Source of the DNA: Escherichia coli
GTDB lineage: Bacteria; Pseudomonadota; Gammaproteobacteria; Enterobacterales; Enterobacteriaceae
NCBI RefSeq assembly: GCF_001677475.2
Contig: NZ_CP015229.1
Strand: one strand, 5' to 3'
Length of the DNA stretch: 64,000 bases
Positions 8,972-47,692 of the stretch are shown piece by piece (positions within the stretch are counted from its first letter, which is position 1; each line of letters begins with the position of its first letter). The notes beneath the pieces are model-generated. The model saw only the letters and a list, made by a program, of their open reading frames with translations. It made no database searches and had not been told where the DNA came from. The translations under genes were made by a program, and so were the position numbers.

Positions 8972-9159
8972 CGGATTGCCGCCGTGGGCCTTCCCGTTCT
9001 GCTGATAACCCTTCCGGTTATATGTTATCTGGTGTGGTTATTCGTTAAACTACAGCGGTTGTCGCGGCGACAAAAGTGGCTGCGCAACCGGCTGATGACC
9101 CGAAACGGGCATCCGCCGGTACGCCGTAGCCGCCAGAGACGCCATCGGAAGGAGTGAGC

Positions 9160-10533
9160 ATGTCTGTACAGCAAATCGACTGGGATCTGGCCCTGATCCA
9201 GAAATATAACTATTCCGGGCCACGATACACCTCGTACCCGACCGCGCTGGAGTTTTCAGAAGACTTCGGCGAACAGGCGTTTTTACAAGCCGTGGCGCGC
9301 TATCCTGAGCGTCCATTATCTCTCTACGTACATATTCCGTTCTGCCATAAGCTTTGTTACTTCTGCGGTTGCAATAAGATTGTTACTCGCCAGCAGCACA
9401 AGGCCGATCAGTATCTGGACGCGCTGGAGCAAGAAATCGTCCATCGTGCACCGCTGTTCGCCGGGCGTCACGTCAGCCAATTGCACTGGGGCGGCGGAAC
9501 GCCGACGTATCTGAATAAAGCGCAAATCAGCCGCCTGATGAAGCTGCTGCGTGAAAACTTCCAGTTCAATGCCGATGCGGAGATTTCGATCGAAGTCGAT
9601 CCGCGGGAAATCGAACTGGATGTACTCGATCATTTACGCGCCGAAGGCTTTAATCGCCTGAGCATGGGCGTGCAGGACTTCAACAAAGAAGTGCAACGTC
9701 TGGTTAACCGCGAGCAGGATGAAGAGTTCATCTTTGCACTGCTTAACCATGCGCGTGAGATTGGTTTTACCTCCACCAACATCGACCTGATTTACGGCCT
9801 GCCGAAACAGACGCCGGAGAGTTTCGCCTTTACCCTGAAACGTGTGGCGGAGCTGAACCCCGATCGTCTGAGTGTCTTTAACTATGCGCATCTGCCGACC
9901 ATTTTTGCTGCTCAGCGCAAAATCAAAGATGCTGACCTGCCGAGTCCGCAGCAAAAACTCGATATCCTGCAGGAAACCATCGCCTTCCTGACGCAATCGG
10001 GCTATCAGTTTATCGGTATGGATCACTTTGCCCGTCCTGATGACGAGCTGGCGGTGGCCCAGCGTGAAGGCGTGCTGCATCGTAACTTCCAGGGCTACAC
10101 CACTCAGGGCGATACCGATCTGCTGGGGATGGGCGTTTCCGCCATCAGCATGATTGGCGACTGCTACGCGCAGAACCAGAAAGAGTTGAAGCAGTACTAT
10201 CAGCAAGTGGATGAACAAGGCAATGCGCTGTGGCGTGGTATTGCGCTAACGCGTGATGACTGTATTCGCCGCGATGTGATTAAGTCGCTCATCTGCAACT
10301 TCCGTCTGGATTACGCCCCTATTGAGCAACAGTGGGATTTGCACTTCGCAGATTACTTTGCGGAAGATCTCAAGCTGCTCGCCCCGTTAGCAAAAGATGG
10401 GCTGGTGGATGTGGATGAGAAGGGAATACAGGTGACGGCGAAAGGTCGCTTGCTGATCCGCAACATTTGCATGTGCTTTGATACCTATCTGCGCCAGAAA
10501 GCGCGGATGCAGCAGTTCTCTCGGGTGATTTAA
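9160..10533 (+). CDS. hemN: Oxygen-independent coproporphyrinogen III dehydrogenase HemN (radical SAM)
   Basis: 457 aa from ATG 9160 (MSVQQIDWDL...) with AAGGAG upstream. CHKLCYFCGC radical-SAM CX3CX2C motif. Confidence 0.97.
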   Translation: MSVQQIDWDLALIQKYNYSGPRYTSYPTALEFSEDFGEQAFLQAVARYPERPLSLYVHIPFCHKLCYFCGCNKIVTRQQHKADQYLDALEQEIVHRAPLFAGRHVSQLHWGGGTPTYLNKAQISRLMKLLRENFQFNADAEISIEVDPREIELDVLDHLRAEGFNRLSMGVQDFNKEVQRLVNREQDEEFIFALLNHAREIGFTSTNIDLIYGLPKQTPESFAFTLKRVAELNPDRLSVFNYAHLPTIFAAQRKIKDADLPSPQQKLDILQETIAFLTQSGYQFIGMDHFARPDDELAVAQREGVLHRNFQGYTTQGDTDLLGMGVSAISMIGDCYAQNQKELKQYYQQVDEQGNALWRGIALTRDDCIRRDVIKSLICNFRLDYAPIEQQWDLHFADYFAEDLKLLAPLAKDGLVDVDEKGIQVTAKGRLLIRNICMCFDTYLRQKARMQQFSRVI

Positions 10534-10600
10534 ATAGTGAATGGCGCTTCGTTTACAAAGTAGAAAACGAAAGCGCCATCAATGTGCTGAGAACAAGATT

Positions 10601-10690
10601 GCCTGATGCGCTACGCTTATCAGGCCTACAAAACCTGTTGAAAATATTGCTTTTGTAGGCCGGATAAGGCGTTCACGCCGCATCCGGCAT
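10601..10690. repeat. REP/BIME element
   Basis: GCCTGATGCGCTACGCTTATCAGGCCTAC ... GTAGGCCGGATAAGGCGTTCACGCCGCATCCGGC. Confidence 0.75.
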
Positions 10691-10722
10691 GAACAAAGAG
10701 CACTTCATCAGCAATCTGAAAC

Positions 10723-10833
10723 TCAACTAAACAGCCCAATCATCGCGGCACACAGCACGGCAGCAACGGCAGTTTGCGGTGTGTGGCTGTCAACTGCGCC
10801 ACTCGATACCAGATTAATTATTGATTCCAGCAT
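10723..10833 (-). CDS. yshB: Small membrane protein YshB (36 aa)
   Basis: Below the track cutoff. My translation is MLESIINLVSSGAVDSHTPQTAVAAVLCAAMIGLFS*, with GGAGAG upstream of the ATG. Position between hemN and glnG matches K-12 yshB. Confidence 0.75.
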   Translation of the reverse strand: MLESIINLVSSGAVDSHTPQTAVAAVLCAAMIGLFS

Positions 10834-10944
10834 AATGACTCTCCCCGTTTTCCGGGCAAGATCATACTGAACTTATCGGAACAGTAAAGCGCAAAATACC
10901 AGCAATTTGCGCTCAATAATCAATCTTTACACACAAGCCGTGAA

Positions 10945-12354
10945 TCACTCCATCCCCAGCTCTTTTAACTTCCGCGTCAGAGTGTTACGCCCCCAGCCGA
11001 GTAGCCGCGCCGCTTCCTGTTTATGTCCTTGCGTATATCGCAACGCGGTCGTCAGTAACGTCCGCTCCAGCTCAGGCTGCGCTTCGGAAAGCAGATTTTG
11101 ATGACCGGAACGCAGCGCCCTGTCTGCCCACTGCGCTAACAGCGTCGCCCAACTGTCCGGTTGCATTTGCGAAGTACTCTCCGCAACCGTTGATTCAAAC
11201 AGTTCACCGGGCAAATCCTGAATCAACACTTCCTGCCCGGCGGCCATCACCGTTAGCCAGCGGCAGGTGTTTTCCAGCTGGCGCACGTTGCCTGGCCACG
11301 CCAGACGCGTCAGAGCAGCTTCGGTTTCCGGATGCAGCAACTTCGCTTCTACGCCCAGTTCACGCGCGGCAACCTGTAAAAAATGGCGCGCCAGACGGGG
11401 AATATCTTCCCGACGTTCGCGCAGCGGCGGCAGATGAACGCGGATAACGTTCAGGCGGTGGAACAGATCCTCACGGAACTTGCCTTCCTGCACCCGCTGT
11501 TCAAGATTCTGGTGAGTGGCAGCGATAATCCGCACATCTACTTTCACCGGCGCATAGCCGCCAACGCGATAAAACTGACCATCTGCCAGTACGCGCAGCA
11601 AACGCGTCTGCACATCCAGCGGCATATCGCCAATTTCATCGAGGAATAATGTACCGCCATCAGCCTGTTCAAAACGCCCCTGACGAATGGTATTCGCGCC
11701 GGTAAACGCGCCTTTCTCGTGGCCAAACAGTTCTGATTCGATCAAATCTTTTGGGATAGCTGCCATATTCAGCGCGATAAACGGCGCTTTGGCGCGCGGA
11801 CTGTGGCGATGCAGGGCATGAGCGACCAGTTCTTTACCGGTACCGGATTCGCCGTTAATCAGCACGCTAATAGAAGAACGCGAAAGCCGACCGATAATAC
11901 GGAACACGTCCTGCATGGCTGGCGCTTCGCCGATGATATCGGTCGTTGGGCCGTTAAGCTGAACATTACGCGGCTGCTGCTGTTCCTGATAATGGCTGAT
12001 GGCGCGCTCAACCAGCGCCACGGCTTCGTCGATATCAAACGGTTTGGGCAGATAATCAAACGCCCCTTGTTGATAGGCGCTGACGGCAGCATCCAGATCG
12101 GAATGTGCGGTCATGATGATGACCGGAAGCATCGGATGGCGCTGTTTAATCTGCTTGAGCAGTGCCAGTCCGTCCATTCCCGGCATACGGATATCTGAAA
12201 GCAGCACATCCGGCGTTTTGCTCGCCAGCGCCTCCAGTACCTCCGCGCCGTTCTCAAATGTCGTACAGGTTAAACCCGCTCCAGCGAGCGCACGTTCAAG
12301 CACCCAACGGATGGAACTATCGTCATCGACTACCCAGACTATCCCTCGTTGCAT
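10945..12354 (-). CDS. glnG: Nitrogen regulation response regulator NtrC (sigma-54 activator)
   Basis: Track ORF trimmed to [12 protein letters not shown]... (469 aa). Receiver domain, AAA+ domain ([14 protein letters not shown]) and C-terminal HTH. Confidence 0.98.
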
Positions 12355-12365
12355 AAACGTCACCT

Positions 12366-13415
12366 TTATTTCCTGATAGGCAGGTAAACCGAGAACTCGG
12401 TATGCCCTGGCCAACTGGTAAATTCAATTTTGCCTGAATGCTGATCAATCAAATTACGAGCGATGGATAAGCCAAGCCCGGTGCCACCTTCGCGGCCGCT
12501 GACCATCGGGTAAAACAGCGTATCCTGCAAATGAGGCGGAATGCCCGGCCCGTTATCTTCCACATCAATCCGCGCCGCCAGCCGGTAGCGCTCGCCGTGT
12601 AAGGTCAGTTGAAACGCGGTGCGGGTACGCAGAATGATTTCACCGCCTTCCGGCCCCAGCGCCTGTAGCGCATTGCGCACAATATTCAGGAGCACTTGCT
12701 CAATTTGATCCGGGTCGTGCGCCAGTTCCGGCAGGCTGGGGTCGTAATCACGAATCAACCGCACGTTGTCCGGCAGTTCCATCGACACCAGCGTCACCAC
12801 ACGTTCAGCCACTTTATGAATACTTTCGGTAACGCGCGTACCGGGCAGCTGCGGCCCCAACAGACGGTCGACCAGATTTCGCAGCCGGTCCGCCTGTTCG
12901 ATAATCACTTTGGTATATTCGAGTAGTGACGGGTCAGGTAATGCTTTGCTGAGTAGCTGCGCCGCGCCCCGTAAACCGCCAAGCGGATTTTTAATCTCAT
13001 GTGCCAGGCCGCGCACTAAATCACGGGCAGCAACCTGCTGGGCGTGCTGTAGCTGTTCCTGACTTAAGCGGCGCTGGTTATCCATCGGTGCCATCTCCAG
13101 CAGGATCATGCCGTCCGGCATACGCTGGGCCGTCACAGAAAGGATATGCGAACGCCCGTCGATGACCAGCGTCACTTCGTTATCGGTAAAACCTTGCCCC
13201 GCCTCCAGACTTTCTTGCATCAGCTCGATATTTAATGAGAAGTAGCTCAACAGTTCCGGTAACGGCGTACCAAACAATTTGCGGGAGCTTTGGGCGAGCA
13301 GTTGTTGCGCGGCGGGGTTGGCGTAATGGATCGCCAGGTTGTCATCGATTAACAAAATACTGTTAATCAGCGAGTTGAGGATCTGCCCAGCATCGGGCTG
13401 CGTGCCTGTTGCCAT
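12366..13415 (-). CDS. glnL: Nitrogen regulation sensor histidine kinase NtrB
   Basis: 349 aa. PAS domain, H-box LAHEIKNPL and G-box GTGLGLS. Confidence 0.98.
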
Positions 13416-13436
13416 AAAGCAGTCTCCTGAACAGGT

Positions 13437-13453
13437 TGCACCATTTTAGTGCA
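13437..13453. promoter_or_regulatory. NtrC operator overlapping the glnL promoter
   Basis: TGCACCATTTTAGTGCA dyad next to a TATAAT (minus strand), just upstream of glnL. Confidence 0.6.
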
Positions 13454-13502
13454 TTATAGCTTTTTACGGATAAAAAGCGCGAAGCATCAGAGAATTGACG
13501 GA

Positions 13503-13733
13503 GAAAAAAGCCCATGCAGAGATGGGCTGAAATTTCCACGGCAACTAAAAACCAGTCCCATCAGGCTATTTTATTTGCCATTTTGAACCTGGGCAGTGCT
13601 CGAACTCCTCACGTACCAGTGTACGCTCCGGGTTCTGCGCGCTGTCCGTGTTCAAACTGGCTGCAACAATTACGCCAGATGGGCCTGGTTTGAACCTCCG
13701 GCGTTGTTGCGCCGGGTAGTACAACTTCAACTA
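13503..13733 (-). ncRNA. glnZ: glnA 3'UTR, source of the GlnZ sRNA, ending at the glnA terminator
   Basis: Untranslated stretch after the glnA stop. Terminal hairpin AGCCCATCTCTGCATGGGCT plus a U-run (minus strand). The exact 5' end cannot be read from sequence. Confidence 0.5.
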
Positions 13734-15143
13734 TTAGACGCTGTAGTACAGCTCAAACTCTACCGGATGCGGAGTCATACGCACGCGGTCATCTTCTTCG
13801 CGACGCAGAGCGATGTACGCATCGATCGCTTCATCCGTGAACACGCCACCGGCTTTCAGGAACTCGCGATCCAGATCCAGTTCGTTCAGTGCTTCTTCCA
13901 GAGAGCCTGCAACCTGTGGGATCTCTTTCGCTTCTTCTGGCGGCAGGTCATACAGGTTTTTGTCCATGGCTTCGCCCGGATGGATCTTGTTCTTGATACC
14001 ATCAAGACCGGCCATCAGCAGGGCAGCAAAGCACAGGTACGGGTTAGCCGCCGGGTCCGGGAAACGTACTTCGATACGACGTGCTTTCGGAGAAGAAACC
14101 ACCGGAATACGGATAGACGCAGAACGGTTACGCGCAGAGTAAGCCAGCATTACCGGTGCTTCGTAGCCCGGGACCAGACGCTTGTAAGAGTTGGTGGTCG
14201 GGTTTGCCAGGGCGTTAATCGCTTTAGCGTGTTTGATTACGCCGCCAATGTAGTACAGCGCCTGCTCAGACAGACCTGCGTATTTATCGCCCGCGAACAG
14301 GTTAACGCCGTTTTTAGACAGTGACATGTGGCAGTGCATACCGGAGCCGTTATCACCGAACATCGGTTTTGGCATAAAGGTCGCAGTTTTACCGAAGCGG
14401 TGCGCTACGTTGTGCACAACATATTTGTAGATCTGAATTTCGTCAGCTTTTTTGGTCATGGTATTGAAGCGGGTAGCCACTTCGTTCTGACCAGCAGTCG
14501 CTACTTCGTGGTGATGGGCTTCAACCACCAGACCCATCTGTTCCATCACCAGACACATTTCAGAACGAATATCCTGAGCAGAGTCTACCGGTGGAACCGG
14601 GAAGTAACCGCCTTTCACTGCCGGACGGTGACCTTTGTTACCACCTTCGTATTGGGTGGAGGAGTTCCATGCGCCTTCGATATCGTCGATAGCAACGTGG
14701 GAACCGGAGATAGATGATCCGAAACGGATGTCATCGAACAGGAAGAATTCAGGTTCTGGCCCGAACAGTACGGTGTCGGCAATGCCAGTGGAACGCAGGT
14801 AATCTTCGGCGCGCTTCGCAATAGAGCGCGGGTCACGGTCATAGCCTTGCAGGGTGCCAGGTTCAAGGATGTCGCAACGGATAATCAGGGTAGAGTCGGC
14901 GAAGAACGGGTCAATCACTGCGGTGGATGCGTCTGGCATCAGCACCATGTCGGATTCGTTAATGCCTTTCCAGCCGCCAATCGAGGAGCCGTCAAACATT
15001 TTGCCTTCTTCGAAGAATTCAGCATTCACCTGATGAGCAGGGATAGTGACGTGCTGTTCTTTACCTTTGGTATCGGTGAAGCGCAAATCAACAAACTTCA
15101 CTTCGTGCTCGTTCAGCATCGTCAGTACGTGTTCAGCGGACAT
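13734..15143 (-). CDS. glnA: Glutamine synthetase
   Basis: 469 aa, [22 protein letters not shown]... Contains the adenylylation-site region NLYDLPPEE. Confidence 0.99.
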
Positions 15144-15226
15144 ACTTTAACTCTCCTGGATTGGTCATTGTCGTCGTGGTAACGAAATCTGCAATTATTT
15201 TGGCCGTGTCGCCGTAAAAAAGATAA

Positions 15227-15244
15227 AGCGAAAACTGTGCCAAC
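15227..15244 (-). promoter_or_regulatory. glnAp2 sigma-54 promoter
   Basis: Minus strand reads TTGGCACAGTTTTCGCT, with GG and GC elements 12 nt apart (the -24/-12 spacing). Confidence 0.8.
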
Positions 15245-15296
15245 TTTTAAATTGCCCCTAAAAGGCGTTATCATGCTTAACATCGTGCAAAAGGGC

Positions 15297-15364
15297 TGCA
15301 CCATGATGTGAATGTTGCACCAATATAGTGCTTCAATGGAAACATTAAGCACCATATTGGTGCA
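15297..15364. promoter_or_regulatory. NtrC enhancer sites upstream of glnA
   Basis: Repeated TGCACCA...TGGTGCA-type dyads: TGCACCATGATG, TGCACCAATATAGTGC and GCACCATATTGGTGCA. Confidence 0.75.
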
Positions 15365-21508: not shown

Positions 21509-22405
21509 TTACGCATAAAGTGACAAAAATGATTCGGTTTGCTCACGATTAGGAATGCCGGCCCGACCGCCAGGCTGGGTACATTTCATCGCGGCAACCG
21601 CACTGGCAAAACGAATAGCCTCTTTTGTTGGCATTTTTTCTGCCAACGCTACCGCGAGTGCGCCGTGAAAAACATCGCCTGCTCCAGTGGTATCAACCAC
21701 ATTGACAGAAAATGCCTCCTGTTGACACAAATGATCATCTTCAATCCACAACGATCCTTCAGAACCCAGCGTAACATACACTTTACCTGCTGTTTGTGTC
21801 GTTGCCTGGAACAAACCTTCTTCAGGTGACTGCAGGCCAGTCATGCGTTTCAGCCCCGGTGTTGAGAACACGGCGTGATCGGCAAGCGCGACAAGTGGAG
21901 AAATATCCTGCGGTGTCATATCGGCGTCTAAAAGCGTTGTCACCCCCGCAAGGCGCGCTAGCGAGAATGCTTTTTCAGTACCGCTATGCCAGCGAACATC
22001 GGCCAGAATCAGATCATAACGAGAGAAATCGATCGCTTCTAACCATTCGGCATCAGTACCGAGATCGGGACTTGGATAATTAACGATAATCCGTTCGCCA
22101 TGCTGATCAACGAGGATCGCTGATTGCGACGAACGGGCGTTAGGATATCGGCGGCAAAATGCGGTATTGACGCCCCAACCCTCAAGTTCTGCAAGTAAGG
22201 TATTTCCACAACTGTCATCGCCGACGCGACCGATGAAATCAACCTCCACGCCAAGCTTTGCGATTGCAACAGCGGCTGTTGCTGCCGGGCCGCCACCAAT
22301 CTCAAGATAATGATTTGCCTGATATTTCCCGCCGCCATCCGGCAGAGTGAGCAAAGAATAAATCCTGTCCTGAACTGTGATACCCACGCATGCAATTTTT
22401 GTCAT
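21509..22405 (-). CDS. PfkB-family kinase, YihV-like (6-deoxy-6-sulfofructose kinase homologue)
   Basis: Track ORF trimmed to ATG 22405 ([11 protein letters not shown]..., AGGA upstream), giving 298 aa. Motifs [11 protein letters not shown] and [14 protein letters not shown]. Confidence 0.85.
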
Positions 22406-42962: not shown

Positions 42963-44018
42963 ATGAAAAGGAATTTATTATCTTCCGCTATTATAGTCGC
43001 CATCATGGCCCTCGGTCTGACGGGTTGTGATGATAAAAAAGCCGAAACAGAAACTCCCCCGCCCGCCAATAGTCAACCTGCCGCTCCAGCTCCTGAAGCG
43101 AAACCTACTGAAGCTCCCGTTGCAAAAGCAGAAGCTAAACCTGAAACGCCTGCGCAACCGGTGGTCGATGAACAAGCGGTTTTCGACGAAAAAATGGATG
43201 TCTATATTAAGTGCTACAACAAGTTACAGATCCCTGTACAGAGCAGTCTGGCGCGTTATGCTGACTGGCTGAAAGATTTTAAACAGGGGCCTACCGGTGA
43301 AGAGCGTACTGTTTATGGCATCTACGGCATTAGTGAATCCAGCCTATCTGAGTGTGAAAAAGGCGTAAAAAGTGCTGTGGCGTTAACGCCTGCGCTGCAA
43401 CCAATTGATGGCGTGGCGGTGAGTTATATCGATGCTGCCGTGGCGTTGGGTAATACCATTAACGAAATGGATAAATATTACACCCAGGAAAATTATAAAG
43501 ACGATGCGTTTGCGAAAGGGAAAACGCTGCACCAGACATTCTTAAAAAATCTGGAAGCCTTTGAACCTGTAGCAGAATCTTATCATGCGGCGATTCAGGA
43601 AATTAATGATAAGCGTCAGCTTGCGGAACTGAAAAATATTGAACAAAGAGAAGGGAAAACATTCCACTACTACTCTCTGGCAGTCATGATTTCAGCGAAA
43701 CAAATTAATAACCTGATATCGCAAGATAAGTTTGATGTTGATGCGGCAATGAAGAAAGTCTCTGAACTGGAAACGCTGGTGGCGCAGGCCAAAGAAGCGG
43801 ATAAAGGCGGTATGAATTTCTCGTTCATTAATTCGGCAGACCAGTATCAACTCGAGGCTAAAAAATATGTTCGCCGCGTCAGAGATAAAGTTCCGTACTC
43901 TGACTGGGATAAAGAGCAACTTCAGGATGCAAACACAAGCTGGATGGTCGACGACTCTTTCCCGAGAGCATTACGCGAGTACAACGAAATGGTCGATGAT
44001 TATAATCGCCTGCGTTAA
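42963..44018 (+). CDS. yiiG: Lipoprotein YiiG (DUF3829)
   Basis: 351 aa. Lipobox LGLTGC. Pro/Ala/Glu-rich linker. Confidence 0.9.
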   Translation: MKRNLLSSAIIVAIMALGLTGCDDKKAETETPPPANSQPAAPAPEAKPTEAPVAKAEAKPETPAQPVVDEQAVFDEKMDVYIKCYNKLQIPVQSSLARYADWLKDFKQGPTGEERTVYGIYGISESSLSECEKGVKSAVALTPALQPIDGVAVSYIDAAVALGNTINEMDKYYTQENYKDDAFAKGKTLHQTFLKNLEAFEPVAESYHAAIQEINDKRQLAELKNIEQREGKTFHYYSLAVMISAKQINNLISQDKFDVDAAMKKVSELETLVAQAKEADKGGMNFSFINSADQYQLEAKKYVRRVRDKVPYSDWDKEQLQDANTSWMVDDSFPRALREYNEMVDDYNRLR

Positions 44019-44045
44019 ACGTTTTTGTTTTTGCTGTGAAATACA

Positions 44046-44079
44046 AGGTCGGATGTGGCGTAAACGCCTTATCCGACCT
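44046..44079. repeat. REP element
   Basis: AGGTCGGATGTGGCGTAAACGCCTTATCCGACCT. Confidence 0.7.
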
Positions 44080-44119
44080 ACACGTCATTAAGCCGTGTCA
44101 GCTGTGGATCCGACAACAT

Positions 44120-44631
44120 TCACCCCTCGCGAAGTAACGCCATAAACCCTTCATACCCCGTTAGCCCGACAATAGTTTCCGCCGAATGCTGACACAGGAC
44201 GCTGGCAAGATAGCTGAATATTTTTAACTCGTGACGCGCATCGGCGGCGGCGCAGGCGATCAAGACATGGTTAATGACTTCGTTATTCACCTCAACTGGT
44301 TGGGCGAGGGTAATAAAAAATCCACGAAAACGTCGCTCCTGTTCGCTCCAGCAATTTCGCCATCGCTGGCTTTCCAGTCAATGGCCTGCGCTTTGCGGGC
44401 GAACAACACAAAGGGCTGTTTTACGCAGGCGCTTTTACCGTGCGGCACGGCGATGCCGGAACCAAATCCCGTGGAGTGCATTTTTTCGCGCAGCAGCAGG
44501 GTTTGCAGGAACTGGTGTTAGTCGGTGATAAAACCGTTTTGTAACGCCATTGTCGCCAACTGCTTCAGAATGGAATAAGCGCCATTGCCCTGAATATTCA
44601 GGTCAATACAGCTTGCAGTAAGAGCTGCCAT
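44120..44631 (-). pseudogene. frvA: Disrupted PTS EIIA gene: frvA 5' part carrying an in-frame TAA, joined out of frame to an EIIA-type 3' tail (possibly the frvR 3' end)
   Basis: MAALTASCIDLNIQGNGAYSILKQLATMALQNGFITD-TAA(44518-44520)-HQFLQTLLLREKMHSTGFGSGIAVPHGKSACVKQPFVLFARKAQAIDWKASDGE. The frame then ends at 44287. A different frame continues FFITLAQPVEVNNEVINHVLIACAAAADARHELKIFSYLASVL...LLREG* to 44120. Confidence 0.75.
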
Positions 44632-45108
44632 TAATCGAACTCCATGAAAAAATATTTCAGTTAATTGTAACGGCGGGGCGGGTTTGTGATGAGCGCGGAT
44701 ATGTCGTGAAGTCGTGACAATATAAAGCAGAGTGAAGGATAAATTTTGCGGGGTAAGGCACATAGTGATTGGTAAAATAAATGTTGTGAATAAAAATTAA
44801 TTCTTTAATGATTTTATGAATGTTTAACTGTCGCGGATATTTTGCTGCAACGTTATTTATATTTGTGGCTTATGAGTCAGCGTGAATCATATCTAATATT
44901 TTTTACGATATTTAGTTAAAAACGGCACTATTGTTATATTCCTCACGTTCCAGGAAATCAGCGGATTTACTCATATTATGCAGCGGGATACTATCCATCG
45001 GCCTGCTGAAGTTGGATTAAAAATTCGAAAGTGCACACCTTATATTTCTCTATATGCGTATTCCTTTTGGAAAGCGTAGGGTCTCTTTTATTTCAGGGAA
45101 CGTAAATA

Positions 45109-46503
45109 ATGAAAAAATCGACATTATCTTTAGCCATCGGTTTATTATTGGCATGTAGTACCGGAATGGCAAAAACACAGCATTTAACGCTGGAACAACG
45201 CATGGCATTGCTGGAAGAACGCCTGGAAGCGGCAGAAATGCGGGCAGCAAAAGCAGAGAGCCAGGTTAAACAGCTGCAGACACAACAAGCCGCTGAGATC
45301 CGCGAAATTAAGACTGCCCAGGGCAATACGCCGGTAAATGGACAGGCAACGGCGGAATCTGCAAAGAAAAATTCCACCTCACCTAATCTTTTGCTCTCAG
45401 GTTATGGCGATTTAAAAATCTACGGCGACGTAGAATTTAATATGGATGCGGAAAGTAATCATGGCCTGCTGGCAATGACCAACGCTGATGTGAATAGCGA
45501 TCCCACTAATGAACAGTGGAATCTCAATGGTCGTATTCTGTTAGGTTTTGATGGTATGCGAAAACTGGATAATGGTTATTTCGCCGGGTTCTCCGCACAA
45601 CCGCTGGGGGACATGCACGGTTCAGTAAATATCGATGATGCGGTATTCTTCTTTGGCAAAGAAAACGACTGGAAGGTCAAAGTAGGCCGTTTTGAAGCCT
45701 ACGATATGTTCCCGCTGAATCAGGATACCTTTGTTGAACATTCCGGTAATACTGCGAACGATCTTTATGACGATGGCAGCGGTTATATCTATATGATGAA
45801 AGAGGGCCGCGGGCGCTCTAACGCTGGCGGTAATTTCCTCGTCAGCAAACAACTTGATAACTGGTATTTTGAATTAAACACGTTACTTGAAGACGGAACA
45901 TCTTTATATAATGATGGTAATTATCATGGACGCGATATGGAGCAGCAGAAAAATGTTGCTTATCTGCGTCCGGTAATTGCCTGGTCGCCGACGGAAGAAT
46001 TCACCGTTTCCGCAGCGATGGAAGCGAACGTGGTAAATAATGCTTATGGTTATACCGATAGCAAGGGTAATTTTGTCGATCAGTCCGATCGTACCGGCTA
46101 TGGTATGAGCATGACCTGGAATGGCCTGAAAACGGATCCGGAAAATGGTGTCGTGGTTAATCTTAATACCGCCTATTTAGATGCTAATAATGAGAAAGAC
46201 TTCACTGCCGGGATTAACGCGCTGTGGAAACGTTTCGAGCTGGGTTATATCTACGCGCACAATAAGATTGATGAATTCAGCGGTGTAGTTTGTGATAACG
46301 ACTGCTGGATTGATGATGAAGGGACGTACACCATTCACACCATTCATGCGTCTTATCAGTTCGCTAATGTGATGGATATGGAGAACTTTAATATTTACCT
46401 CGGGACGTATTACTCCATTCTGGATAGCGACGGTGATAAAAAACACGGTGATGATACTGATGACCGTTACGGCGCACGCGTTCGCTTTAAATACTTCTTC
46501 TGA
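45109..46503 (+). CDS. Outer-membrane beta-barrel porin with N-terminal coiled-coil extension (carbohydrate-porin-like, ScrY/RafY/OprB style)
   Basis: 464 aa. Signal peptide MKKSTLSLAIGLLLACSTGMA. Heptad-like LEQRMALLEERLEAAEMRAAKAESQVKQLQ. Aromatic-rich alternating strands. Ends RVRFKYFF with a terminal Phe. Confidence 0.7.
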   Translation: MKKSTLSLAIGLLLACSTGMAKTQHLTLEQRMALLEERLEAAEMRAAKAESQVKQLQTQQAAEIREIKTAQGNTPVNGQATAESAKKNSTSPNLLLSGYGDLKIYGDVEFNMDAESNHGLLAMTNADVNSDPTNEQWNLNGRILLGFDGMRKLDNGYFAGFSAQPLGDMHGSVNIDDAVFFFGKENDWKVKVGRFEAYDMFPLNQDTFVEHSGNTANDLYDDGSGYIYMMKEGRGRSNAGGNFLVSKQLDNWYFELNTLLEDGTSLYNDGNYHGRDMEQQKNVAYLRPVIAWSPTEEFTVSAAMEANVVNNAYGYTDSKGNFVDQSDRTGYGMSMTWNGLKTDPENGVVVNLNTAYLDANNEKDFTAGINALWKRFELGYIYAHNKIDEFSGVVCDNDCWIDDEGTYTIHTIHASYQFANVMDMENFNIYLGTYYSILDSDGDKKHGDDTDDRYGARVRFKYFF

Positions 46504-46510
46504 TGAAGTC

Positions 46511-46537
46511 GCGGTGCTGGATATTTTCCGGCACCGC
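46511..46537. terminator. Bidirectional hairpin between the convergent porin gene and rhaM
   Basis: GCGGTGCTGGA-TATT-TTCCGGCACCGC, 10 of 11 arm positions complementary. Confidence 0.65.
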
Positions 46538-46543
46538 AACTCA

Positions 46544-46858
46544 TTAAGGCAGGTAAAACACTTCTTGCAGCTCGCTACTGACTGGGCTGTTATCCGGGTT
46601 AGCTGGCATAACGTCGGTCATATATTTCCACCAACGTTGGCAAACATCAGTACTGGCTACCGCATTCCACCGTTCTTCAGATTCAATCTCTACCGTGGCA
46701 AACAGCAGATTACGCGCTTTGTCGAGGTAAATGGTGTAGTTATGCGCACCGTGAGATTTCAACACTGCTTCCAGTTCCGGCCAGATGGGATTATGCCGAC
46801 GCTGATACTCTTCGTGGGCGTCGGGGTTAACCTGCATGACAAAGGCTTTGCGGATCAT
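46544..46858 (-). CDS. rhaM: L-rhamnose mutarotase
   Basis: 104 aa. [30 protein letters not shown]... Confidence 0.96.
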
Positions 46859-46867
46859 GTTTGCTCC

Positions 46868-47692
46868 TTACAGCGCCAGCGCACTGGCTAGTGGTGTAAC
46901 GCCGAAGCGCTTGCCGAGCGCTATCAACTCTTCACGGTTGATGGTCTGTTTCATGCCGCCCATCGAATAAACCTTCACTAATACTTGTGCTGATTTTTCT
47001 GCGGTGTCGATTAAACCGAATGTTTCATCCAGCGTCGGCCCGCTGCCGAAGACGCCGTGGAAGGGCCACAACACCAGCGAATGTTTTTGCATTTCTTGTG
47101 CGGTCGCCTGGCCGATTTCGTCCGTGCCGGGCACCATCCACGGCAGAATGCCAACGCCATCCGGGAACACTACCAGACACTCGGTGCTGCCTTCCCACAG
47201 TTGGCGAGTAAAGACCGCGGTGTCGTTTTCCAGTACGTAGGTAAGGGCGATCAGGTTGGTGGCGTGGCAGTGCATGATCACCCGATCTTTACCGTTGGTG
47301 GCTTTAATGCGCTCGCAGTGGGAAAGGAAGTGAGCCGGAAGTTCGGAAGTGGGGACGGCTTCGTTGGTTAATCCCCAGAGAATATGGTAGCCCGCGCCGT
47401 CGCTGTCGACTTTTACGACGCCTAAGTTAGCCGCAGGATCAAGCTGGACGTTACGGAAGAATTTGCCGGAGCCGGTGACAATAAACGGTGTATTTGCCAG
47501 TAAAGGCATGGGCTGGCTGAGCGGAATATAGCGTGGTTGTGGGTGGAAGTTGTCGTGATAAAGCGCGATATCGGCGTCATCCAGGCGCAGCGTCAGGTTG
47601 CCGCCGTTGCGCTCGTCCCAGCCTTTCAGCCAGGCATCGGTGGTGGCTTTGATCATTCCCTGGACAAACCAGGACTGGGTAATGTTTTGCAT
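46868..47692 (-). CDS. rhaD: Rhamnulose-1-phosphate aldolase
   Basis: Track ORF trimmed to [19 protein letters not shown]... (274 aa). Class II aldolase. Confidence 0.96.

Follow-up and report, generated by a model that had tools for sequence, protein, structure and literature searches.

Why does a porin gene stand beside rhaM in this Escherichia coli chromosome when K-12 has no gene between frvA and rhaM, and what kind of porin does it encode? The gene lies in a stretch of 64,000 nucleotides, hereafter the window, from contig NZ_CP015229.1 of assembly GCF_001677475.2. It is an intact open reading frame (ORF) of 464 codons plus stop with an ATG start at 45109-46503 on the plus strand, and its product begins MKKSTLSLAIGLLLACSTGMA and ends RVRFKYFF. 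A first-pass annotation, made from the letters of the window, had described it as an orphan, inserted porin resembling the sucrose porin ScrY. We found that, judged by its sequence, the gene is a chromosomal Escherichia member of the RafY glycoporin family (PF16966 Porin_8; TCDB 1.B.15) and an old resident of its site. RafY-family identity, a wide-pore function and old chromosomal residence together are the best explanation of the locus as a whole, and we put the probability of this reading at roughly 80%.

The family assignment, which the first-pass annotation had left to a profile search, comes from a hidden Markov model (HMM) match to PF16966, 'Porin-like glycoporin RafY'. At 513.9 bits (E = 3e-154) the match far exceeds the cutoff of 25, and residues 104-464 cover positions 1-372 of the 372-position profile. 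Over 450 amino acids the porin is 79% identical to a 464-amino-acid porin of plasmid pCREC-532_1 that UniRef names RafY. On that plasmid the gene order is LacI repressor, glycoside hydrolase family 36 (GH36) alpha-galactosidase, LacY-type permease, GH32 invertase and porin, which is the classical rafR-rafA-rafB-rafD-rafY arrangement; a further plasmid-type E. coli allele is located in rafRABD-pfkB-rafY. The features of the RafY family are present in the window protein: a signal peptide, a predicted outer-membrane beta-barrel of 16 strands and a C-terminal aromatic residue. The LamB/ScrY maltoporin family (PF02264) gave no Pfam match even at E<=1, and the predicted barrel is not 18-stranded; the OprB carbohydrate porin family (PF04966) gave no HMM match. 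In NCBIfam there was no model and nothing significant, and sequence and profile searches of the PDB returned only chance or coiled-coil matches, with no barrel relative and no ScrY or LamB chain. By these searches the RafY family is still without a solved structure.

The gene is already known. The window protein is found letter for letter in GenBank and UniRef as 'carbohydrate porin [Escherichia coli]', and the gene is annotated in thousands of genomes, in some O157:H7 annotations as 'rafY2'. Genetic linkage to raffinose or other oligosaccharide genes is absent at the window porin and present at the orthologous Klebsiella and Raoultella site; such linkage is typical of the RafY family but is not required for membership. 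The gene has also come up in print: O157:H7 genomes have a rafY homologue annotated as rafY2 without rafRABD (PMC4809568), and in one set of E. coli isolates rafY was present in 45 and rafABD in only 23 (PMC12987596); PMC4827864 likewise records E. coli that have rafY but lack rafABD. RafY itself is the characterised founding member of the family, its function being cited in PMC4809568, PMC4827864 and PMC12987596, so that calling the substrate of the window porin open, as had been done, was an overstatement.

The protein has the layout expected from the first reading of its sequence. Its signal peptide, residues 1-21 (45109-45171, plus strand), consists of MKK, a hydrophobic core and GMA, and cleavage would follow Ala21, which is invariant in the family alignments. 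A periplasmic coiled-coil segment comes next at residues ~27-62 (45187-45294, plus strand). The heptad pattern noticed earlier proved to be a continuous a/d core (L28, M32, L35, L39, A42, A46, A49, V53 and L56) in unbroken 3-4 spacing, and E29, R31, L35, E36, R38, L39, E43, R45, A49 and E50 are invariant in the family alignment. The Pfam module PF11471 (Sugarporin_N) reached only 15.2 bits on the window protein, below its cutoff of 25.7 (E = 0.026), and was found at E<=0.01 in 26 of 30 family members (best 4.1e-7). Heptads, predicted helix and relatives together suggest that the N-terminal extension is a genuine coiled coil of the ScrY type. Sharing this module does not make the barrel a member of the LamB family. 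Thus the comparison with ScrY (PF02264, 18-stranded) stands for the N-terminal periplasmic coiled coil, which is probably of the same Pfam type, but not for the barrel, which belongs to PF16966; the gene encodes a RafY-type pore with 16 predicted strands rather than a ScrY/LamB glycoporin.

Within the coil-coding region, a repeat search detected two 17-nucleotide direct repeats 21 nucleotides apart, GCTGGAACAACGCATGG and GCTGGAAGAACGCCTGG (45189-45226, plus strand), which are the DNA image of one heptad. In the allele of ATCC 25922 (Seattle 1946; locus L055, 3001-4374), residues 31-37 (RMALLEE), exactly one heptad, are missing. This deletion looks like slippage at the 17-nucleotide repeats, with the register of the coil preserved.

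Between coil and barrel lies a variable linker, residues ~63-100 (45295-45408, plus strand), which is 45% identical to plasmid RafY, as against 87-88% in the barrel, and has a predicted local distance difference test score (pLDDT) below 50. The beta-barrel domain spans residues 104-464 (45418-46500, plus strand) and ends in a C-terminal Phe. The earlier description of an aromatic-rich region of alternating strands agrees with a mature protein that is 12% aromatic, and the barrel it called for was obtained in an AlphaFold2 model built from 30 family members (pLDDT 62; predicted template modelling score 0.62). Residues 28-71 are helical in the model, the linker is disordered, and 16 beta-strands follow within residues 101-463. 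With strands counted from the periplasmic N terminus, the third external loop comprises the 45 residues 195-239 (FEAYDMFPLNQDTF...GYIYMMKEGRGRS; 45691-45825, plus strand). No other stretch of the family is nearly as well conserved (GRFEAYDMFPLNQDTF...GYIYMMKEGRGRS): its columns are near-invariant, invariant residues span R194-S237 and identity to plasmid RafY is 87%; model confidence is low over residues 197-237. In classical porins the third loop reaches into the barrel and determines the width of the pore. By analogy, loop 195-239 would be the constriction loop inside the barrel. Another predicted external loop holds two near-invariant cysteines, C395 and C399 (46291-46305, residues 395-399), which might form a disulphide; next to them the O157:H7 allele has a further cysteine (W400C).

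In the fold comparison with solved porins, OprP scored 21.2, Omp-Pst1 20.8, VhChiP and Omp32 20.5 each and DcaP 20.4, and the 18-stranded ScrY and LamB scored 17.9 and 17.3. The trimeric 16-stranded porins OprP, Omp-Pst1, VhChiP, Omp32 and DcaP are only 11-13% identical to the window protein, with no relationship at the level of sequence. The closest known system remains the plasmid RafY of rafRABD-Y (pRSD2 type). Both proteins belong to the same Pfam family and have 464 amino acids, a coiled coil and a C-terminal ...RFKYFF, and their overall identity of 79% is exceeded in the third loop and in the later strands (87-88%). Their signal peptides and linkers differ, as does one late loop. Unlike plasmid rafY, the window gene is chromosomal, stands beside rhaM without rafR, rafA, rafB or rafD, and has a leader unrelated to the rafD-rafY spacer.

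These similarities suggest a simple path for the protein. The precursor would be exported by Sec and cleaved after Ala21, and the parallel periplasmic coiled coil at residues ~27-62 would presumably hold a trimer together. The variable linker would lead into the predicted 16-stranded barrel, with the near-invariant third loop as its likely constriction, and the C-terminal Phe would serve outer-membrane assembly. By homology to plasmid RafY, the product may form a wide channel for diffusion that lacks a sugar-binding site and passes di- to oligosaccharides (raffinose, stachyose, sucrose and maltodextrins) into the periplasm at low external concentration, where existing inner-membrane permeases of the strain would take over. 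RafY is reported to complement lamB and scrY mutants (Ulmke 1997), and the channel of plasmid RafY reportedly has a conductance of ~2.9 nS in 1 M KCl and is not blocked by sugars (Andersen 1998).

We then compared the neighbourhoods of the family in 36 genome loci from other Enterobacterales, in which neighbouring ORFs were clustered and the cluster representatives annotated with Pfam. RafY-family porins elsewhere in the order are nearly always in a sugar-utilisation cluster, at its edge. The porin is accompanied by LacI, a LacY-type permease and GH32, in some cases with a PfkB kinase, in Rahnella, Rouxiella, Pseudescherichia and Orbus, as also in a mobile E. coli cluster; by trehalase and MFS_2 in K. 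michiganensis, Lelliottia and Enterobacter mori; by GH5 and MFS_2 in Dryocola and Raoultella scottii, and by MFS_2 only in Apirhabdus; by GH65, HAD and the phosphotransferase system (PTS) in Providencia; and by PTS, GH38 and a PRD regulator in Pantoea, Cedecea and Erwinia. In Serratia it lies in a scrK-porin-scrA-scrB-scrR-like cluster (L031, L032, L048 and L049; ~9000-15300) of PfkB kinase, RafY-family porin, PTS EIIBC, GH32 and LacI, the order of a classical scrK-Y-A-B-R cluster except that a RafY-type barrel takes the position of ScrY. Such a variety of clusters is easier to reconcile with a size-permissive pore than with one specific for a substrate. A role in the uptake of rhamnose-containing oligosaccharides, one of the earlier speculations, finds no footing here: the porin gene is convergent with rhaM, and outside the clade that has it at this site the RafY family is not beside rha genes.

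Is the gene a recent arrival? The first-pass annotation was right that K-12 has no gene at this position; in a K-12-type genome the frvA-rhaM spacer is 300 bp with nothing annotated inside. In a blastn comparison the K-12 type matches the window up to 44781 and again from 46543, so that the two haplotypes are told apart by segment 44782-46542: 1,761 bp in the window and, in K-12, a filler of ~150 bp that is AT-rich and unrelated in sequence. We found no significant similarity between the K-12 filler and the porin segment. Among 5,426 complete genomes, the porin (at least 80% covered) is present in 2,557 and the K-12-type filler in 2,824, and the distributions of the two complement each other almost exactly. 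The haplotype without the gene did not arise by a clean deletion: the AT-rich filler (1926-2075 in L004, K-12 type; 701-862 in L057, O113:H21) has its own hairpin and occurs as two variants that an indel of 12-13 nucleotides distinguishes.

Comparison with other genera argues against an insertion. A porin convergent with rhaM is present in Citrobacter (including C. rodentium and C. sedlakii), Scandinavium, Klebsiella sp. B345, Klebsiella sp. WOUb02 and Raoultella terrigena, and rhaM is its convergent neighbour in every genus with the porin at this site. Identity to the window protein is 81-84% in Citrobacter, 73-75% in Klebsiella and Raoultella and 67% in Scandinavium, dropping in step with the flanking genes. 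Within E. coli, the synonymous divergence (dS) between the window and a B2 strain is 0.20 for the porin, against 0.16 for rhaD, 0.19 for rhaM, 0.20 for rhaA and 0.21 for fdhD; between the window and BL21 it is 0.06 for the porin, 0.07 for rhaA and 0.10 for rhaD. Because the porin is as diverged as its core neighbours, it was not recently inserted; the ancestor of E. coli already had the gene, and its absence from K-12 is the derived condition. These comparisons indicate that the porin is an old resident of the rhaM-side site that was lost by K-12, which reverses the direction of the event as first described, from a gain by the window strain to a loss by K-12. The porin was lost independently in HS30-1 (L005, 2503-2577), where yiiG and frv are gone through an IS1-associated deletion and only the final 77 bp of the porin gene remain beside rhaM.

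The retained alleles bear the marks of constraint. The ratio of nonsynonymous to synonymous divergence (dN/dS) is 0.04-0.10 at dS up to 0.23, and 6 of the 6 E. coli alleles examined are intact. Most allele differences fall in the periplasmic linker and not in the barrel. The low ratio, the intact alleles and the bias of the differences to the linker argue against a decaying relic, and such comparisons of alleles point to strong purifying selection that keeps the porin in about half of E. coli. The same evidence bears on the idea that the gene is a silent, functionless leftover, an H-NS-silenced cryptic gene heading for loss. An AT-rich leader, no significant promoter, no partner genes and the absence of the gene from about half of the species would suit such a gene, but dN/dS stays at 0.04-0.10 across phylogroups, all examined alleles are intact and the sole indel seen removes exactly one heptad; we regard this idea as very unlikely.

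How the porin came to stand alone is a separate question, and the Klebsiella and Raoultella loci suggest an answer. Upstream of the porin, Citrobacter and Scandinavium have azlC and a gene for an HTH_3/cupin regulator as neighbours. Klebsiella and Raoultella have rafR-rafA-rafB between these two flanking genes and the porin, accompanied in two cases by a maltose-acetyltransferase-like gene. The resulting rafR-rafA-rafB-[acetyltransferase]-porin-rhaM cluster has its porin (73-75% identical) in the same position and convergent with rhaM, as in E. coli, but the E. coli porin is preceded by frvA or its remains and not by raf genes. The original operon sought in the first-pass annotation is therefore likely to be this one, with rafR-rafA-rafB directly upstream of the orthologous porin. 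The simplest reading, to which we give roughly even odds, is that rafRAB(D)Y stood here in an ancestor common to Escherichia and Citrobacter and that every gene except the porin was lost, so that the E. coli gene would be the surviving end of an ancestral chromosomal raf cluster.

Two comparisons bear on this history. Between the plasmids and the Klebsiella/Raoultella chromosomes, identity is 65-67% for RafR, 70-73% for RafA, 73-75% for RafB and 66-68% for RafY; the equal divergence of the four proteins implies that the porin was already in the raf unit when the plasmid and Klebsiella/Raoultella lines split. Plasmid RafY is also closer to the E. coli orphan (78%, dS 0.95) than to the porins of Citrobacter (~70%) or Klebsiella (66-68%), which points to a raf-bearing lineage near Escherichia. 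The competing history that survives best, and which we consider a real possibility though a less probable one, is that the porin always stood alone beside rhaM, that raf genes were recruited upstream later in Klebsiella/Raoultella, and that the unit then moved to plasmids. Orphans in four genera (E. coli, Citrobacter, Scandinavium and Trabulsiella) are in keeping with this, as are the lack of raf remnants upstream in E. coli and a leader that cannot be aligned with the Klebsiella or plasmid spacers. It fits poorly with the embedding of the RafY family in sugar clusters everywhere else, with the equal divergence of RafR, RafA, RafB and RafY between plasmids and Klebsiella, and with a plasmid RafY that is nearer to the E. 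coli orphan than to Klebsiella or Citrobacter. The choice between loss of a raf cluster and a stand-alone origin changes only the history; the RafY-family identity is unaffected.

Several observations weigh against the combined reading of a functional RafY-type pore left over from a raf cluster. No homologues of RafR, RafA, RafB or RafD, and no cognate permease or hydrolase, are present in the 64-kb window, and upstream of the window porin we found no remnants of raf, pfkB, maa, azlCD or HTH_3. By blastn the leader shows no similarity to the porin leaders of Klebsiella, Raoultella, Scandinavium or the plasmids, the rafB/rafD-rafY spacers of Klebsiella and the plasmids included. Since there is no raf remnant and the leader is unlike the Klebsiella and plasmid spacers, it is synteny alone that points to a relic. 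The leader is also AT-rich and without a convincing promoter, and could be silenced. Finally, confidence in the AlphaFold2 model is no more than moderate (pLDDT 62) and is poor in the loop presumed to form the constriction.

A more ambitious version would make the orphan at once the last piece of an ancestral Escherichia raf operon, the closest chromosomal kin of the plasmid-mobilised rafY and a maintained presence/absence polymorphism, in which access to dietary oligosaccharides by way of a very wide pore is set against the cost of a leakier outer membrane (large antibiotics, bile and phage). We think it improbable that all of these hold together.

The neighbouring frv genes raise the further question of whether the porin is the outer-membrane partner of the divergent frv PTS operon, with the 476-bp control region in common. 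frvRXBA and the porin are adjacent in E. coli and Trabulsiella and close together in Scandinavium lactucae. In Pantoea, Cedecea and Erwinia (L041, L044 and L045), the porin, which there is without its N-terminal part (match from residue 100), is the last gene of an apparent operon on one strand with fructose-type PTS EIIA and EIIBC, a GH38 alpha-mannosidase and a PRD/EIIA regulator. However, FrvA and FrvB share no more than 31-35% identity with these PTS proteins. Moreover, the state of frv does not predict that of the porin. frvRXBA is intact beside the porin in BL21 and O157:H7, broken in the window, and absent, with a truncated yiiG, in the B2 strains U14A and ATCC 25922; the porin is intact and under purifying selection where frv is broken or missing, and K-12 has frv without the porin. 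A partnership with frv is thus highly unlikely, independent retention and loss speaking against a functional link. The least probable of the alternatives is that the porin is kept or lost mainly as a surface receptor, with phage or colicin attack driving the polymorphism: porins are common receptors and E. coli genomes divide into complementary, nearly equal halves, but few amino-acid differences between alleles lie in predicted external loops, most being in the periplasmic linker, the allele differences do not point to an arms race in the surface loops, and the literature found on the gene names no phage or colicin user.

If expressed, the porin would give its carriers (BL21, O157:H7 and B2 lineages) an extra outer-membrane route for large solutes that is absent from K-12, and could affect growth on plant oligosaccharides and the uptake of bulky compounds. 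To what was known of the gene, the present analysis adds that K-12 lost it, that raf genes adjoin its orthologue in Klebsiella and Raoultella, and that its alleles give evidence of purifying selection; the practical value of this is small.

The leader of the porin gene, found only on the porin-bearing haplotype, occupies 44782-45108 (327 bp, plus strand). It is AT-rich, as first described, with a G+C content of 33.6% against 44.9% for the porin gene and 49.8% for the 64-kb window, and its upstream limit is the end of K-12 homology at 44781; the BL21 leader is 96% identical. By blastn its likeness is limited to the Citrobacter leader and to two blocks, one at 44885-44947 (plus strand, 77-78% identity) and one at 45055-45108 (plus strand, 70-72% identity) covering the proximal leader and ribosome-binding region. 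The first block holds a CRP-like half-palindrome, TGTTATATTCCTCACG, at 44932-44947, with 2 mismatches to TGTGA-N6-TCACA in a consensus scan; by our own estimate, ~0.2 such matches would be expected by chance in the frvA-porin spacer. A weak sigma-70-like promoter match, TTAAAA-18-TATATT, lies at 45017-45046 (plus strand; 9 of 12 consensus positions), but sigma-70-like sites are no commoner in the scan than in shuffled sequences. A small hairpin in the 5' untranslated region of the porin gene is not significant (z = -1.4).

Downstream, the porin gene is convergent with rhaM (L-rhamnose mutarotase; 46544-46858, minus strand), 40 bp away; rhaM is identified by its ORF and annotations and by Pfam rhaM matches in the Citrobacter and Klebsiella loci. 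The 40-bp spacer contains an inverted repeat at 46507-46541 that forms a stem-loop of -27.4 and -25.6 kcal/mol on the two strands (z ~-7). This is a probable bidirectional terminator, although a clear U-tract is lacking. An 18-nucleotide direct repeat, 83% identical, flanks the porin gene at 44835-44852 and 46519-46536, its right copy lying within the terminator stem-loop. The K-12 junction is not where this repeat would place it, and the repeat may have arisen by chance.

The dead PTS operon noted upstream consists of a 3' remnant of frvR (~44108-44355) fused to the 5' part of frvA (44356-44632), together 44108-44632 on the minus strand, as delimited by megablast coverage and by the names of the features matched; frvX and frvB have been lost by deletion. 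Strain GF43 has the identical frvR'-'frvA junction, annotated as two partial pseudogenes. The true start of frvA is at ~44632 and not at 44763, which makes the frvA-porin spacer 476 bp, as in BL21. The description of the gene as an orphan convergent with rhaM was borne out, the ORF list and homology searches revealing no other sugar-cluster genes adjoining the porin in the window.

An Rfam scan of 44000-47000 returned nothing but a sub-threshold match to naRNA4 (REP-derived) at 44038-44081 (34.8 bits against a gathering score of 59.5), which falls outside the porin locus, just downstream of yiiG, and is probably a REP (repetitive extragenic palindromic) element. Far from the porin, at 21524-22306 on the minus strand, lies a homologue of PfkB-family sugar kinases that is 27% identical to the kinase of a plasmid raf cluster (E = 1.6e-10) and is probably unrelated to the porin.

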